Source: Candidatus Aenigmatarchaeota archaeon
GTDB taxonomy: Archaea; Aenigmatarchaeota; Aenigmatarchaeia; CG10238-14; SCSR01
Reading direction: 5' to 3'
DNA length: 16,407 bases
Assembly (NCBI GenBank): GCA_038999725.1
Contig: JAWBWS010000007.1
Coordinates: 1 to 16,407 of the forward strand
The notes under the pieces are model-generated. The model was not told the DNA's origin and searched no databases. It worked only from the letters and a program-made list of their open reading frames with translations. Positions 430 through 12,123 of the stretch are shown one piece after another (position 1 is the stretch's first letter; the number at the start of each line of letters is the position of its first letter). The position numbers were made by a program, and so were the translations under genes.

Positions 430-1056
430 TTATTTAGACTTCAATTTTTCTATTTCAGGCTCAAGAATAGACCAAATCTCTTCATGAACCTCTTTCATAC
501 TCTTACTTGCATCAATCACATACCATCTCGCTTCTTTGTTTTCTCTTGCAAGCTTGAGAAAAATTTCCCTTGTTTTCTCCAGAATTTCCCTCTCCTTTTC
601 TATTCTCTCCAGAATTTCCTTCTTGCTGAAATCTTCTAAGCTGAGTTGTCTTACCCTTGACAAAGTTGTCTCAACAGGCACATCCATCAAGAAAACTATA
701 TCTGGTTTGATGAAATATTTTTCAATTTGCATGAGCCAATCTAAAGGAACACCTTTAGCAGCCTGGTAGGCAAAATTGCTGTAGCAATAGCGATCTGTGA
801 TTAAAACCTGCCCAGCTTCAAGTAAAGCTTTGATTCTTTCTTGAGATGAGCCTCTATCAGCAGCGTAAAGCAAAGATAAAGTTAAAGCATCAAGCTGGAG
901 CCTTTTAGTTAACTTTGCTATATCATTATCAAAATCTGGAAAGCTCAATGTTGTGAAGGGAATTTTCCTTATTAATAGCTCTTCTGTTACCATTTTTATG
1001 TGGGTCTTCTTTCCCGAGCCGGTTATTCCCTCAAAAGCTATGAAAATACCCCTCAT
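430..1056 (-). CDS. tmk: Thymidylate kinase family protein with atypical P-loop
   Basis: Motifs FIAFEGITGSGKKT, LLYAADR, TDRYCYSNFAYQ and KPDIVFLMDVP are typical of dTMP kinases. ATG at 1056 preferred over the upstream TTG at 1062. Confidence 0.85.
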   Translation of the reverse strand: MRGIFIAFEGITGSGKKTHIKMVTEELLIRKIPFTTLSFPDFDNDIAKLTKRLQLDALTLSLLYAADRGSSQERIKALLEAGQVLITDRYCYSNFAYQAAKGVPLDWLMQIEKYFIKPDIVFLMDVPVETTLSRVRQLSLEDFSKKEILERIEKEREILEKTREIFLKLARENKEARWYVIDASKSMKEVHEEIWSILEPEIEKLKSK

Positions 1057-1083
1057 GGGCAATTTTTTATACTAGCCGTCTAT

Positions 1084-1632
1084 TTAAATACTTTTCCATT
1101 CCTCTTTCAGCAAACCATACATAAATTCATCATACCATTTCCTTGAAAATTTTCCTTTCCAATGCTCCCTTAACTTACCTTCCAGCTTGAAGCCAAATTT
1201 TTCAAGTAAATGAGAAGACCTCTTGTTTGGTTCACAAACTCGTGCGTAAATTTTATGCAACTTAAGCTTCTTGAAACCAAACTCCAAAATAAGTTTAACT
1301 GCTTCACTCATTAAACCTTGGCCCCAATACTTTCTAGCTAACCAATATCCCAACTCAGCGTTTTCATTTGTTTTGTTGATGTTCACTAGGGCTACACCAC
1401 CTATTATTTCCCCTGTTTCTTTCAAAAATATGGAAAATTCATAACCTTCCTTCTTCTTCATTCTTCTCCTTGCTCTCTTGATAAAATCTTTAGCATGCTC
1501 AAGTTTATATGGATAGGGAATTGTAGTGAATCTTGCTACAGCTTTGTCGTTTATGTACCTACAAAGATTTTTTACATCTTCCATCTCAGGAATTTTCAAG
1601 ACAATTCTTTCGCCATTTATTTTCAAGCTCAT
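1084..1632 (-). CDS. RimJ/RimL-type GNAT N-acetyltransferase
   Basis: Motifs ELGYWLARKYWGQGLMSEA, N..S..LLEKFGFKLEGKLREH. Confidence 0.9.
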   Translation of the reverse strand: MSLKINGERIVLKIPEMEDVKNLCRYINDKAVARFTTIPYPYKLEHAKDFIKRARRRMKKKEGYEFSIFLKETGEIIGGVALVNINKTNENAELGYWLARKYWGQGLMSEAVKLILEFGFKKLKLHKIYARVCEPNKRSSHLLEKFGFKLEGKLREHWKGKFSRKWYDEFMYGLLKEEWKSI

Positions 1633-7089: not shown

Positions 7090-7503
7090 TCATGCAAGCA
7101 AAGTTGAAAGCTCTTTCAAAACACTTTGAACTGATGTTGCCAAATTCTTAATTCTCTTTATTTCATTCAAACCAAACCATCTATATTCAATATGATCCCT
7201 TTCCCCAAGTTTTACCTTAAGAGTTTTGGGTCTACATAAAAAAGATAGGACAAGTTCGTGCTCTTTATCAGATCTTATAGTTGAGCCTATTCCAAGGAGC
7301 TTTTCTACTTTTACATCCAGGTTCGTCTCTTCCTTAACTTCCCTTTCAGCAGTTTCAGATGGGTGTTCGCCATATTCTATCTTCCCAGATGGGAATTCCC
7401 ACACATCTGGCTTTTTTCTGTGAAGCAAAAGCACCTTCTTACCTTTTATCACAACACCCGAAACAAATATCTTAATAAATCCTTTAGGCGTTTTAAATCT
7501 CAT
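7090..7503 (-). CDS. Nudix hydrolase
   Basis: Nudix box GKIEYGEHPSETAEREVKEETNL. Confidence 0.92.
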   Translation of the reverse strand: MRFKTPKGFIKIFVSGVVIKGKKVLLLHRKKPDVWEFPSGKIEYGEHPSETAEREVKEETNLDVKVEKLLGIGSTIRSDKEHELVLSFLCRPKTLKVKLGERDHIEYRWFGLNEIKRIKNLATSVQSVLKELSTLLA

Positions 7504-7711: not shown

Positions 7712-10042
7712 ATGGCATTTAAACCAAAAATAAAAGAAAAAAGATGGGATATCAAAATTGAGAAGACTTTATTTGAGCAGTGGAGGAAAAAGAAAATTTA
7801 CTCTTTCAACATCAATACCAAGAAAAAGATTTTTTCAATAGATACTCCACCTCCATATCCTTCAGGCAGGCCTTGGCACATCGGGGCTGCGGCCCACTAC
7901 TCACAAATAGACATGATAGCAAGAACTGCAAGAATGTTTGGATTCGAGGTTTTCTTCCCTATTGGGATAGATAGAAATGGAGTGCCGGTTGAAAGGTATA
8001 CCGAGAAAAAGTACAACATAAAAATGCATGAAACTCCTAGAGAAAAATTCATTGAACTAGCAAAAACTGCTCTAGATGATTTGGAAGCTGAGTTAATAGA
8101 GATAATGAAGATGATGGGATTGAGTGGAGATTTTGAAAATTACTACAGGACAGATTCGAAAGAATATAGAAAACTCACACAAGAGACTTTTTTAATGTTA
8201 TGGAAAAAGGGCTTGATATACCAAGCAACAAGACCAAACAACTATTGCCCAGACTGTAGGACAACAATAGCTGATGCTGATGTTGTTTATGAAGAGTTGC
8301 CAACCCAACTTGTTTACATCAAATTCAAGCTTGTTGGTGAGGATAAGTATATAACAATAGCAACGACAAGACCAGAACTAATTTGTTCTTGCCAAGCAAT
8401 TCTTGTACATCCTGAAGATGAGAGATATAAAGACTTGCCTGGAAAGAAAGCTTTGTTGCCTCTATATAACAGGGAAGTTCCTATTCTTGCAAATCCTGCT
8501 GCAAACCCCGAATTTGGTTCTGGAATAGTGATGGTTTGTAGCTATGGTGACACCACAGATGTAAGGCTTTTCAGGGAGCTTGGCCTAAAAGAGATAATAG
8601 CAATTAATTTAGATGGAAAGATGAATGAAAATACTGGTAAGTATGTTGGGCTCGAGGTTAGGGAAGCTAGGAAAAAAATTGTTGAAGATTTGGAAGCTTT
8701 GGGTTTAATTGAAAAGAAAGAAATGATAATGCATCGCACTCCAGTTTGTGAGAGAAGCAAGACTCCAATAGAAATTATTTCCCTGGATGAATTTTATCTC
8801 AAACAACTACCTTTCTTGGAAGATGTGAAGAAAATTGCTGAAAAAATAATCTTTCATCCGGAGCGACACAGGCAAATCTTGTACAATTGGATTAATTCTG
8901 TCTCAATAGACTGGCCAATTTCAAGAAGAAGATATTATGGGACAGAAGTTCCTGTCTGGTATTGTAAGAAATGTGGTAAGCCAAATTTGCCAAAGCCTGG
9001 AAAATATTATCAGCCTTGGAAAGAGAAACATCCTTTCGAGAAATGTAAATATTGTGGTGGTGAAGAATTTGAAGGAGAGACTAGAACTTTCGACACATGG
9101 TTTGACTCAAGCATTACTCCCTTATTCATTTCAAAATTCCTAAGAGATGAGAAATTCTTCAAGAAAACTTTCCCGAATAGCTTGAGGCCACAAGCAAAAG
9201 ACATAGTCAGGACATGGCTCTATTACACTTTGTTAAGGTGCTATCAGTTGACAAAAAAGCCTGCTTGGAGGCATGCTTGGATAATGGGATATGGTGTGGA
9301 TGAAAAAGGTGAAAGGATGAGCAAGAGCAAGGGTAATGTTATTGATCCAATACCAATATTGAAGAAGTATGGTGCTGATAGTTTTAGGTTTTGGAACGCC
9401 TCAGAAGTTAGCCTGGGGTTCGATTTCAGGTGCTCTGAGGAAAGAATCGCCTCGGCTTCAAAATTCTTGACGAAGCTTTGGAATATTGCTAGGTTTATTT
9501 CCTCTTTCCCAAAACCAAAGAAGGTTAAGTTAACTAAAACAGACGAGTGGATTTTGGCTGAATTGAGTAAACTTGTAAAAGAGTGTTTGAAGGGATATGA
9601 AGACTTCAATTTCTTTATTCCAGCAACAAAAATTAGGGAATTCACATGGAATCTTTTTGCTTCCCATTATATGGAGATGGTTAAGCCCAGGGCTTATGGC
9701 CAAGGGTTTAACAAAAAAGAACAGCTTGCTGCTTGGTTCACTTTACACACTTGTTTGAAAAATATTTTACTTCTCCTCGCTCCAATAACCCCATTTATCA
9801 CAGAAAAGATATGGTTAGAGTTATATGGTAAAGAATCGATTCATACACAAACCTTCCCAAAGGCTGAATGGAAAATCGAGCTATCAAAATTCACTAAAAA
9901 TATTGTGGAGTTCAACTCCAATGTTTGGAACTTGAAGAAGGAAAAGAACCTTTCTCTTAAAGATGGAATTGAGATTGAAATTCCAAAAAATCTTAAGATT
10001 TTTGAGAAAGATTTGAAAGCAATGCACAATATTAAACATTGA
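7712..10042 (+). CDS. valS: Valyl-tRNA synthetase (archaeal type)
   Basis: IDTPPPYPSG, HIGH-equivalent HIGA, editing domain ATTRPE...VCSYGD, DWPISRRRYYG, DTWFDSS, KMSKS-equivalent RMSKS, YGADSFRFW. Confidence 0.95.
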   Translation: MAFKPKIKEKRWDIKIEKTLFEQWRKKKIYSFNINTKKKIFSIDTPPPYPSGRPWHIGAAAHYSQIDMIARTARMFGFEVFFPIGIDRNGVPVERYTEKKYNIKMHETPREKFIELAKTALDDLEAELIEIMKMMGLSGDFENYYRTDSKEYRKLTQETFLMLWKKGLIYQATRPNNYCPDCRTTIADADVVYEELPTQLVYIKFKLVGEDKYITIATTRPELICSCQAILVHPEDERYKDLPGKKALLPLYNREVPILANPAANPEFGSGIVMVCSYGDTTDVRLFRELGLKEIIAINLDGKMNENTGKYVGLEVREARKKIVEDLEALGLIEKKEMIMHRTPVCERSKTPIEIISLDEFYLKQLPFLEDVKKIAEKIIFHPERHRQILYNWINSVSIDWPISRRRYYGTEVPVWYCKKCGKPNLPKPGKYYQPWKEKHPFEKCKYCGGEEFEGETRTFDTWFDSSITPLFISKFLRDEKFFKKTFPNSLRPQAKDIVRTWLYYTLLRCYQLTKKPAWRHAWIMGYGVDEKGERMSKSKGNVIDPIPILKKYGADSFRFWNASEVSLGFDFRCSEERIASASKFLTKLWNIARFISSFPKPKKVKLTKTDEWILAELSKLVKECLKGYEDFNFFIPATKIREFTWNLFASHYMEMVKPRAYGQGFNKKEQLAAWFTLHTCLKNILLLLAPITPFITEKIWLELYGKESIHTQTFPKAEWKIELSKFTKNIVEFNSNVWNLKKEKNLSLKDGIEIEIPKNLKIFEKDLKAMHNIKH

Positions 10043-10101
10043 CTTATCTCACCATAAGTTTTTATTTGAACATTTAGAATTTTTATTGAAAGGTGCTTGA
10101 G

Positions 10102-11319
10102 ATGGTTGAAATAAAAGAGGAAGAAAAGCTGAAACTTAAGAAACTGATAAAAGAATTGGAAAAAATAAAGGGGAGACACACAGAATTGATTAGTGTTTAT
10201 ATTCCAGCAGGCTACAATTTAACCGAAGCTGCAAACCAGCTTTTCCAAGAGAAGGGTACAGCTTCAAACATAAAGAGCAAGACGACGAGAAAAAATGTTA
10301 TGACTGCCCTTGAAAAGATTCTCCAGTATTTGAAGCTCTTCAGGAAAACTCCTGATAATGGACTTGTTATATTTTGTGGGAATGTTTCTGAAGTTGAAGG
10401 TAAAGAAGATATAAGGCTTTGGAGCTATGAGCCACCCATCCCAATTTCACAGAAAATCTATTGGTGTGATCAAACTTTTGTTCTTGATCCTTTAAGAGAG
10501 TTGATTTCTGAGAAAGAGGTTTATGGTTTAATAGTTTTGGACGCAAGAGAAGCAACAATAGGCTTGTTGAAGGGAAAGAGAATTGAAAAATTGAAGAGCA
10601 TGGAGTCTACAGTACCAAGCAAAACAGTTAAAGGTGGTATGAGCCAGAAAAGATATGATAGACTTAGAGATGATGCCTTGAATGAGTTTTTGGTTAAGGT
10701 TGGTGAAGAAGCTTCCAATATATTTCTCAAGCAAGAAAATTTGAAGGGTGTGATAATTGGTGGTCCAGGCCCTGTAAAAGAAACTTTTTATGATAAAAAC
10801 TACTTACATTACCAGCTTCAAAAGAAAGTTTTGGGTGTCAAGGACATAGGATCAACTGATGAATATGGCTTGGAAGAGCTCGTTTTCAAATCCCAAGACC
10901 TGTTGAAAGAGGCCATGATTTCCAAGGAGAAAGCTCTCATGCAAAAATTTTTCATCGAGCTTAAAAACAATGGAAATGTGATATATGGACTTGAAGAAAC
11001 AAGAAAGGCCTTGGAAGCAGGAGCTGTTGATGTTTTGCTTATATCAGAAGAGTTTAACTGGCTTCATGTTAAGTTTAGGTGTGTGTGTGGTTTTTTTGAA
11101 GAAAGGGATTTACCAAAGTTTTTGGTTGAAAAACAAAAATGTCCAAATTGTGGGCAAAAGCTGATTGTAGAAGAAAGCCATGAACTTTTGGATGAACTTG
11201 TGGAAAAGGCTTCCTCTTTGGGGACAAGAGTTGAATACATCTCAACCGAAACAAATGAAGGAATTCAGTTCAAAGAGCTTGGTGGTGTTGGGGCTCTTCT
11301 AAGGTATAAGCTTCAATAA
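10102..11319 (+). CDS. prf1: Peptide chain release factor aRF1 (GGQ replaced by GGM)
   Basis: GRHTELISVYIP, TASNIKSK, YWCDQTF, GGPG, C-domain Zn-ribbon insertion (CVCG...CPNCG), GGVGALLRY. SD-like AGGTG precedes ATG 10102. Confidence 0.95.
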   Translation: MVEIKEEEKLKLKKLIKELEKIKGRHTELISVYIPAGYNLTEAANQLFQEKGTASNIKSKTTRKNVMTALEKILQYLKLFRKTPDNGLVIFCGNVSEVEGKEDIRLWSYEPPIPISQKIYWCDQTFVLDPLRELISEKEVYGLIVLDAREATIGLLKGKRIEKLKSMESTVPSKTVKGGMSQKRYDRLRDDALNEFLVKVGEEASNIFLKQENLKGVIIGGPGPVKETFYDKNYLHYQLQKKVLGVKDIGSTDEYGLEELVFKSQDLLKEAMISKEKALMQKFFIELKNNGNVIYGLEETRKALEAGAVDVLLISEEFNWLHVKFRCVCGFFEERDLPKFLVEKQKCPNCGQKLIVEESHELLDELVEKASSLGTRVEYISTETNEGIQFKELGGVGALLRYKLQ

Positions 11320-11341: not shown

Positions 11342-12091
11342 TCAGACTTTTATACCAAAAAACTTGATAGCATTTTCTGTGGTCAGTTTGTCTATTTTCT
11401 CTTCTCCAACTTTTTTTATTTCGGCAATTTTTCGGATGACAAGTTTTATTGAGGATGGATCATTCCTTCCTTCTAGCCCAAGCCAAGGCGAATCTGTCTC
11501 TGTCAGAATTCTTTCTAAAGGCATATCCCTCACAATCTTCTTTATCTTCTTGCTCGTGAGAAGTGTTGTGTTCACTGAAATATACCAACCGTTCTCTATA
11601 ACTTTTTTCAAAAGTTCTTTTGCAGAGAAGAAATGCATCAAAACATTTTTTGCTTTTTGAGCTTCAAGAATCTCAATGGCTTCGGCAAAAGCCTTTCTCG
11701 CATGGATTACCAAAGGTTTTTTTAGTTCATTTGCCAGAGATATGAAGTCGTAAAACAATTCCTTCTGTTTTTCCCTCCATTCTTGCTCTTCTATTAGAAA
11801 GTCAAGACCAATCTCACCTATGCCAACCAATTTATCTTCATTTTTCCTCAACAAATCAAAAAATTCTGCTTTTTCTCTCTCACTTATTTCTTTTATGTAC
11901 TCTGGATGAATTCCAGCAGTAGCGAAAACAAACCCTTTGTGTTTTTCAACAAGCTGCATGGTCAGCTCAAAATCTTTAGGATGGGCACAAGATGTGATGA
12001 TAGCTTTGAGCTCTCGCTTACATTTCTCTATAACCTCATCTCTATCAGAATTGTAATCTGGCTGTTCTAGATGGCAATGAACATCGATCAT
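11342..12091 (-). CDS. tatD: TatD family hydrolase/DNase
   Basis: Motifs DVHCHL, GIHP, GIGEIGLD, IHAR, HFF and ETDSPWL. Confidence 0.93.
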   Translation of the reverse strand: MIDVHCHLEQPDYNSDRDEVIEKCKRELKAIITSCAHPKDFELTMQLVEKHKGFVFATAGIHPEYIKEISEREKAEFFDLLRKNEDKLVGIGEIGLDFLIEEQEWREKQKELFYDFISLANELKKPLVIHARKAFAEAIEILEAQKAKNVLMHFFSAKELLKKVIENGWYISVNTTLLTSKKIKKIVRDMPLERILTETDSPWLGLEGRNDPSSIKLVIRKIAEIKKVGEEKIDKLTTENAIKFFGIKV

Positions 12092-12123
12092 CAAGATTAT
12101 TTGGAGTTAGGAGAATAAAACCT

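Follow-up and report, generated by a model that had tools for sequence, protein, structure and literature searches.

A class-1 release factor aRF1 with GGMSQ in place of the GGQ loop in an Aenigmatarchaeota archaeon and its relatives

The stretch of DNA analyzed here (the window: 16,407 nucleotides, positions 1 to 16,407 of contig JAWBWS010000007.1, assembly GCA_038999725.1, from a Candidatus Aenigmatarchaeota archaeon) carries a gene for aRF1, the archaeal class-1 peptide chain release factor, in which the catalytic GGQ tripeptide reads GGM. GGQ is the textbook universally conserved catalytic motif of these factors: the bacterial and the archaeo-eukaryotic release factors, which are unrelated, arrived at it independently, and its glutamine is methylated by dedicated enzymes in all three domains of life. 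The aRF1 frame opens at GTG 10093 (open reading frame [ORF] 10093..11319, plus strand); its start is likely the ATG at 10102, which has GGTG ahead of it and gives a product of 405 amino acids (aa), like the closest homologs (404 to 405 aa). Residue numbers given below are counted along ORF 10093..11319. The product matches the NCBIfam equivalog model TIGR03676 with 480 bits (cut-off, 234.7) over model positions 1 to 402 of 403, and contains the domains eRF1_1, eRF1_2, and eRF1_3 (PF03463, PF03464, and PF03465), each beyond its own Pfam cut-off (Table 1). Its best solved relative, found with phmmer against solved structures, is Halobacterium aRF1 (4af1; E = 7.9e-85).

Nucleotides 10633-10647 read GGT GGT ATG AGC CAG and encode G181 G182 M183 S184 Q185. 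In phmmer alignments, the segment kggMsqkrydrlr pairs without gaps to kggQsaqrfarlr of 4af1 and to rggQsalrfarlr of human eRF1: the length of the loop is unchanged with respect to canonical aRF1/eRF1, and both glycines and the downstream Arg-rich helix are strictly kept. A preliminary description, made from the sequence alone, had called the protein a full-length aRF1 with GGM for GGQ and with intact NIKS and YxCxxxF motifs; the TIGR03676 score, the gap-free pairing to solved GGQ loops, and the presence of TASNIKS and YWCDQTF in the N domain bear this out. It had also argued that a single base-call error could not explain the ATG, which differs from CAG at two positions and from CAA at three. 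The ATG is indeed no base-call error: a residue other than glutamine at this position (hereafter, non-Q) occurs in 103 separately assembled genomes, and in four genomes of the window's genus G-G-M-S-Q is fixed while the codons for Gly, Ser, Gln, and Arg differ synonymously. It is this conservation across genomes that speaks against a sequencing error; contig coverage is secondary. Logan contigs of runs X1 and X3 (one study) span 10093-10833 with 0 and 1 differences, and run X5, which is from a second study and represents a diverged strain, adds a contig of 17.2 kb over 10330-11310; among the 40 differences listed (129 further rows are unlisted), none falls within 10633-10647. As read support, this coverage from three runs and two studies is weak. 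The GGMSQ observation is confirmed.

The change extends well beyond the window's genus. The query and its 120 nearest homologs, among 5.8 billion proteins, all carry GG[M/F/W] (121 of 121), and in 40 genomes of order-level relatives 30 of 30 loci are non-Q (M, 20; W, 8; F, 1; Y, 1). We typed the loop in a phylum sample of 201 genomes using two degenerate DNA patterns and one further locus, with codons decoded by hand from the matches; 188 genomes were typed and 13 remained untyped. Among the 188 typed Aenigmatarchaeota, 103 are non-Q (W, 62; M, 37; Y, 2; F, 1; A, 1) and 85 are GGQ, so the variant is clade-wide, a point that the preliminary description had proposed to check. The usual invariance of the motif was confirmed in a control set of aRF1 proteins from other archaea, in which 119 of 119 have GGQ; by the names shown, Thermoplasmata, Bathyarchaeia, halophiles, methanogens, Micrarchaeia, and Nanoarchaeota are among them. 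Full-text searches, with subscription journals largely outside their reach, turned up no earlier description of an aRF1 that has lost GGQ, of GGWSQ or GGMSQ, or of an intein in aRF1.

GGWSQ was reached independently by a second DPANN lineage, from a GGQSS background. Its eight proteins (P0174 and its seven nearest relatives, P0392-P0398, which are 60 to 66% identical to P0174) all read PSKHTK-GGWSQ, and the next relatives (48 to 50% identical), one of them named Candidatus Diapherotrites, read GGQSS. In a FastTree phylogeny of 101 representatives, P0174 and several single non-Q sequences fall outside the Aenigmatarchaeota group, and the starred branches force at least nine changes. The scattered representatives read GGWSQ, GGASQ, GGESQ, GGFSQ, and GGESA; mostly single metagenomic sequences, they are best treated as leads. 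One of them, P0254 (GGASQ), was rejected as a further non-Q lineage: it is an isolated sequence whose next relative is 42% identical, and its 119 other matches, the control set above, are all GGQ.

Within the phylum, we placed the change on a maximum-likelihood tree of aRF1 (quick search, LG+G4, 89 rows), which leaves out near-identical same-genus rows, partial rows, and intein-bearing rows. The 44 non-Q rows sit in one group of 46 (Shimodaira-Hasegawa-like approximate likelihood ratio test [SH-aLRT], 87), the remaining two belonging to family f20 and carrying GGQ. Its sister clade (SH-aLRT, 95) consists of 32 Aenigmatarchaeota, all of them GGQ. The rows of the window's order, 24 in number and non-Q throughout, form a clade of their own (SH-aLRT, 99). 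The minimum number of changes between Q and non-Q on the free tree is three, and the approximately unbiased (AU) test did not reject a single clade of all 44 non-Q rows (P = 0.227). The likely history is a change from GGQ to GGW once or a few times, followed by changes from W to M, F, Y, or A within the window's order; each step takes two base changes. Because the tree has no unusually long branch, because the non-Q factors keep full scores against TIGR03676 (375 to 508 bits, as high as those of GGQ orthologs), and because synonymous change surrounds a fixed GGMSQ, we conclude that both the aRF1 gene and its GGMSQ motif are under purifying selection.

This aRF1 is the sole class-1 factor that we found in its genome, a 730-kb metagenome-assembled genome of 9 contigs that is 93% complete. 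In a six-frame search with the aRF1 model, the gene described here was the only match, so the assembled genome yields no second, GGQ-bearing aRF1 of the kind for which a search had been advised; nor did it yield a match to the bacterial RF-1 domain or a second eRF1-superfamily gene. The partner aEF1-alpha is present (691 bits). The genes of the window stop at TAA, TAG, and TGA, as noted earlier, and all three codons are in use genome-wide (204 TAA, 167 TGA, and 70 TAG among frames of at least 200 codons); one aRF1 would thus serve all three. We consider it quite probable that the gene encodes a single, working, omnipotent class-1 release factor, an aRF1 ortholog whose loop went from GGQ-S-[A/S] to GG-[hydrophobic]-S-Q. 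That the genome holds no second aRF1 and that the variant is clade-wide support the earlier proposal that the lineage terminates translation with a noncanonical loop. The competing proposal of a repurposed or decaying paralog finds no such support: the gene is the only copy, scores like GGQ orthologs against TIGR03676, keeps its recognition motifs, and shows the marks of purifying selection.

Table 1. Features of the aRF1 gene and of its neighbors in the window
Feature	Coordinates	Strand	Remarks
aRF1 coding sequence (class-1 peptide chain release factor)	10102..11319	+	TIGR03676 match; stop TAA
N domain, eRF1_1 (stop-codon recognition)	10138..10503	+	PF03463; residues 16-137
TASNIKS	NIKS at 10267-10278	+	N domain motif, intact; residues 56-62
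YWCDQTF (YxCxxxF)	10459-10479	+	N domain motif, intact; residues 123-129
M domain, eRF1_2 (bearer of catalytic loop)	10522..10911	+	PF03464; residues 144-273; 142 bits
GGM tripeptide at GGQ position	10633..10641	+	Gap-free alignment to GGQ of 4af1, 3j5y, and 1dt9
Met183	10639-10641	+	ATG; in place of the catalytic, normally N5-methylated Gln
Ser184-Gln185	10642..10647	+	Completes GGxSQ motif with GGM
C domain, eRF1_3	10918..11313	+	PF03465; residues 276-407
Cys4 insert of C domain	CVCG 11080-11091; CPNCG 11140-11154	+	Sequence motifs
Valine-tRNA ligase (valS)	7712..10042	+	Directly upstream of aRF1, same strand; NF009687, 925 bits (cut-off, 738)
dTMP kinase	430-1062	-	
GNAT acetyltransferase	1084-1632	-	
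Nudix hydrolase	7090-7503	-	
TatD-family nuclease	11342-12094	-	

With canonical aRF1/eRF1 (TIGR03676; 4af1, 3agk, and 1dt9) the protein shares the three domains, NIKS, YxCxxxF, the GG pair, loop length, and Arg-rich helix, as well as occurrence as one copy per genome with an aEF1-alpha partner. It differs in that the catalytic, methylated Gln is replaced by Met here and by Trp, Phe, Tyr, or Ala in relatives; in that the non-Q clade mostly has Gln at position +2, mostly has Tyr for Phe at +5, and lacks Mtq2, the GGQ methyltransferase; and in that ABCE1 and pelota were not detected in the window's genus. We class it as an aRF1 variant because it is orthologous by descent and yet departs from the defining catalytic motif.

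How might such a loop work? The intact N domain would read the stop codons, aEF1-alpha would deliver the factor, and the two glycines would let the loop enter the peptidyl-transferase center (PTC), where the backbone NH of residue 183 would perform the chemistry, as in canonical factors. The side chain of Met183, like that of the Trp, Phe, or Tyr found in relatives, may fill the rRNA pocket that is normally packed by N5-methyl-Gln; Met can be likened to a shortened methyl-Gln that would occupy the pocket without modification. Gln185 could supply a helpful amide, which would not be strictly required: lineages with Ala at +2 exist, and therefore this amide should not be indispensable. Mtq2 would have been lost because no Gln remained to methylate, leaving the enzyme useless. 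Such a loss would fit genome reduction, which is typical of these archaea. Shaw and Green reportedly found in 2007 that most substitutions of the RF1 Gln keep hydrolysis, and Santos et al. are said to have found in 2013 that GGP, in which the backbone NH is lost, is dead. Passages of PMC5799190 assign the Gln side chain a "packing role" in the PTC, attribute to its methylation additional van der Waals contacts with PTC nucleotides, and describe a main-chain amide that helps hold the water.

The distribution of Mtq2 fits this picture. In the host genome, the best match to Mtq2 (TIGR00537) reaches 32 bits against a cut-off of 87, and no match to Trm112 exceeded the cut-off in a profile search; the Mtq2/Trm112 methyltransferase that the preliminary description had proposed to look for thus falls short on both subunits. 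Across the phylum, Mtq2 reaches the cut-off in 75 of 201 genomes: 71 of the 85 GGQ genomes, 1 of the 103 non-Q genomes, and 3 untyped ones. We fetched 16 borderline and clear matches and compared them (BLAST and the NPPY motif). The clear Mtq2 proteins share NPPY and group by BLAST, as do the 79- to 80-bit matches of GGQ genomes G128 and G062. The 74- to 87-bit matches checked in non-Q genomes, including the sole positive one (G038), are without NPPY (two have NPPF or DPPF); they appear to be one or more paralogs, some of which also stand beside a true Mtq2, in G123 and G143. Family f20 contains both states: its GGQ genomes (G101, G128, G062, G168, and G185) all have an NPPY Mtq2 (5 of 5), and none of its GGW genomes reaches the Mtq2 cut-off. 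Mtq2 goes with GGQ in about 1.9 of 2 independent contrasts. That Mtq2 presence follows GGQ across the phylum is in line with the earlier suggestion that GGQ methylation may be needless in this lineage. A study of archaeal Mtq2 (PMC6144793) attributes Mtq2 orthologs to all archaea and suggests that aRF1 is generally methylated; our data contradict this generalization for a large part of one phylum.

Several observations weigh against a working GG-[hydrophobic]-S-Q loop of this kind. Fourteen of the 85 GGQ genomes also lack Mtq2 at the cut-off, score or contig ends being the cause for at least 3 of the 14. The Mtq2-GGQ link rests on two independent pairs if starred branches are used and on three if all branches are used; because there are only two or three pairs, a sign test cannot reach significance. 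We set aside a Fisher P value of 3e-36 for the same association, which ignores relatedness. On the rRNA side, the 23S gene of the host genome (L129, G000:C4:72103-74243) ends with its contig, at position 2196 of the 2987 of the model; the break lies before domain V, and the peptidyl-transferase region is outside the assembly. We aligned the 3' parts of 23S genes from 10 non-Q and 10 GGQ genomes (L130-L149), and none of the core PTC columns separates the two groups; the nucleotides that we take to be E. coli A2451, U2506, U2585, A2602, and G2553 are identical in both. A compensating rRNA change was considered and rejected: the only columns with disjoint states fall in the variable 3'-terminal helix. 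Five near-fixed differences lie outside the core PTC, save one, which is in the A loop and goes with the order and not with the non-Q state. Finally, altering the Gln does harm in model organisms; according to passages of PMC12440015, yeast cells that express eRF1 with Q182E could not be propagated. The GGQ mutants of RF1, RF2, and eRF1 that were made in the laboratory resemble the proteins described here in that Gln is replaced and both Gly are retained; those mutants, however, are engineered and generally harmful in vivo (PMC12440015, same passages), whereas in the present case a large natural clade has the replacement as its wild type.

The 23S alignment also showed features of the phylum that we report in their own right. 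The A loop reads GGTG[C/T]CCAC in 8 of 8 genomes of the window's order (L130-L137) and GGTGTTCAC in 10 of 10 GGQ genomes and in two GGW genomes of family f14. We take the change in the window's order to be U2555C, joined by U2554C in five of the eight (E. coli numbering); these two nucleotides are normally near-invariant and touch the tRNA CCA end. Beside the presumed A2451, the 23S genes of 18 of the 20 Aenigmatarchaeota have ATAATGG, an unusual PTC sequence; the two exceptions are G099 (ATAACAG) and G051 (ATAACCG). Since GGQ and non-Q genomes have ATAATGG in common, it is phylum-wide and has no tie to the loss of GGQ. Insertions, probably introns, are present at or near functional sites in many of the phylum's 23S genes (L130, L137, L145, L146, and others), for example, in the P-loop in G002 and in the U2585 and A2602 regions in G070, G092, and G099; the genes are between 2.8 kb and more than 6 kb long.

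Residue 183 is not the only position of the loop to have changed. Gln is found at +2 (GGxSQ) in 72 of 81 non-Q intein-free alleles (Ala, 8; Ser, 1 in the rest) versus 5 of 74 GGQ intein-free alleles, and by hand reading Asn follows at +3 in 7 of the 9 non-Q alleles that lack Gln(+2). At +5 (within window positions 10648-10659), where the typing pattern allows only Phe or Tyr, the aromatic residue is Tyr in 70 of 81 non-Q versus 12 of 74 GGQ alleles (hand count); the Tyr(+5) change is coupled to the loss of Gln. The loop is, moreover, the site of a class-1 intein, inserted exactly between residue 183 and Ser184 (between 10641 and 10642 in window-equivalent coordinates) in 32 of 188 typed genomes (GGQ, 11; GGM, 15; GGW, 6) and also in 45 fetched proteins. 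Its junctions read GGx/C...HN/S: it starts with Cys and ends with His-Asn, and the Ser is the +1 splice nucleophile. It occurs in mini forms (about 130-160 aa) and endonuclease-bearing forms (about 270-570 aa), and Pfam intein and Hint domains are recorded for intein-bearing aRF1 homologs. The window's own copy is intein-free; its relatives L029 and L030 carry the intein. With their junctions of GGx/C...HN/SQ, the intein-bearing alleles have kept an open frame and are predicted to be splice competent. After the intein, the host protein resumes with SQ in 17 of 17 determinable GG[M/W/F] alleles versus 2 of 26 GGQ alleles. The presence of an intein marks the loop site as indispensable to the host.

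The enrichment of Gln at +2, in intein-free and intein-bearing alleles alike, fits the earlier suggestion that this residue may be used, and raises a possibility that we hold as tentative, namely a shift of register: Gln185 would be the true catalytic Gln, as has been suggested for archaeal and actinobacterial VLRF-1 with their GGxSQ loops, and Met or Trp only a spacer. Such a shift overlaps our interpretation and differs from it on which residue is essential. It is favored by the repeated coupling of Gln loss to Gln(+2). The independent GGWSQ of the second DPANN lineage, which arose on GGQSS, would suit it, as would the scattered GGWSQ, GGASQ, GGESQ, and GGFSQ representatives. The preliminary description had mentioned that VLRF1-type branches carry GGxSQ-like loops, which agrees with passages of Burroughs and Aravind (2019; PMC6514570), where aVLRF-1 and acVLRF-1 have GGxSQ and that Gln is taken as catalytic; the M domain of the window protein also gives a weak match to the acVLRF1 Pfam model (45.5 bits). 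As described in the same passages, aVLRF-1 has no pelota-type domain at its C terminus and begins with a long coiled coil at its N terminus, and acVLRF-1 is without the stop-codon domain, whereas the window protein has all three domains and reaches only 36.9 bits against acVLRF1_NCBI (cut-off, 125). VLRF-1 loops are also longer (PMC6514570), whereas the loop of the window protein is of canonical length, so that Gln(+2) would probably start the following helix rather than lie at the loop tip. Nine of the 81 non-Q genomes, moreover, have Ala or Ser at +2 (GGWSA, GGMSA, and GGWSS); these alleles occur at several places in the tree (f10, f14, f20, and f1), and their lineages survive. The passages of PMC6514570 considered here make no mention of a classical aRF1 with GGxSQ.

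A second alternative concerns the origin of the loop and not its mechanism: GGx-SQ may have been spread by the intein and not only by catalytic selection. The changed residues, at -1 and +2, flank the insertion site and might have been co-converted at homing or selected to block re-invasion. The position of the intein exactly at GGx-S, in GGQ, GGM, and GGW alleles alike, and the recurrence of the same GGWSQ in two distant lineages are compatible with such a history. We nevertheless think it unlikely: the intein can do without the change, since it is also present in GGQ alleles, where SA or SS follows it, and the co-loss of Mtq2 would be left unexplained. Homing possibly helped spread the residues flanking the intein.

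It is very improbable, in our view, that the protein is a dead factor that binds stops without hydrolysis, like pelota/Dom34, the peptide being freed by a different enzyme or by splitting of the ribosome. Inactive members of the family such as Dom34 are marked by the loss of the canonical Gln (passages of PMC6514570), pelota/Dom34 belongs to the same superfamily and also has no Gln at the GGQ position, and in a genome without pelota one protein might have assumed rescue. However, the N domain of pelota/Dom34 is Sm-like and its loop is poorly conserved and lacks GG, whereas the window protein keeps NIKS, YxCxxxF, and GG; its match to pelota model TIGR00111 (88.4 bits; cut-off, 177.65) covers the M and C domains only. 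The Gly pair, loop length, and Arg-rich helix are retained, unlike the "poor conservation" ascribed to inactive loops (PMC6514570, same passages). What makes a dead factor unlikely is that the loop is conserved, not decayed, and that we found no other hydrolase in the host genome, neither an RF-1 domain nor a second eRF1-family gene. The splitting partner, ABCE1, is missing from the genus as well.

The rescue and recycling genes show a pattern of their own. A pelota profile search of the host genome returned only the aRF1 gene (86 bits), and ABCE1/RLI was not found there, the best match reaching 77 bits against a cut-off of 469. ABCE1/RLI is usually taken as universal in archaea. In the phylum sample, only 122 of 201 genomes have a match at the cut-off, and ABCE1/RLI is missing from whole genera (g1, 0 of 3; g6, 0 of 9; g26, 0 of 6; g20, 0 of 4); this pattern does not follow the GGQ state: families f14 (17 of 17) and f15 (7 of 7) have ABCE1. 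Pelota is present in 101 of 201 phylum genomes; in family f1, 1 of 41 genomes has a match, and that match is the aRF1 gene itself. Since neither pelota nor ABCE1 was found in it, the window's genus appears to rely on no more than aRF1 and aEF1-alpha for termination, rescue, and recycling.

Relatives of the GGxSQ/GSQ type, Vms1/ANKZF1, are reported to free protein by cutting the tRNA 3' CCA end. By analogy, a GGxSQ aRF1 might cut the 3' CCA end of the P-site tRNA instead of the ester, with the CCA-adding enzyme then mending every tRNA once a round of termination is over; the basis for this is the shared motif only, and we regard it as scarcely probable. That the state is an artifact of sequencing, assembly, or binning, or that the gene is a decaying pseudogene, can be discounted for practical purposes: the sequence does come from a metagenome-assembled genome, but the same state recurs in the 103 separately assembled genomes and in 121 database proteins, the frame is intact with a full-length model match, and contigs from two studies span the site.

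If the gene indeed encodes a working aRF1 with a GG-[hydrophobic]-S-Q loop, a large natural clade without the Gln and its methyltransferase still uses three stop codons with a single factor. The dispute on the role of the Gln (water positioning, nucleophile exclusion, or packing) could then be addressed with natural proteins instead of sick mutants. The pattern suggests that a genetically encoded hydrophobic residue can replace a post-translational methylation, and GGWSQ, GGMSQ, GGFSQ, and GGYSQ offer evolution-tested loops for release-factor design. It also carries a warning for annotation, which holds for motif-based screens too: a protein without GGQ is not necessarily something other than a release factor. 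A hot-spring archaeon and a branch of its phylum thus provide a natural experiment on protein release.

As for the rest of the window, 10 of the 18 ORFs scanned had no NCBIfam match at an E value of 1e-5 or better, and the neighbors of the aRF1 gene are ordinary genes (Table 1). The gene directly upstream, valS, shows that the context of the aRF1 gene is a housekeeping one.

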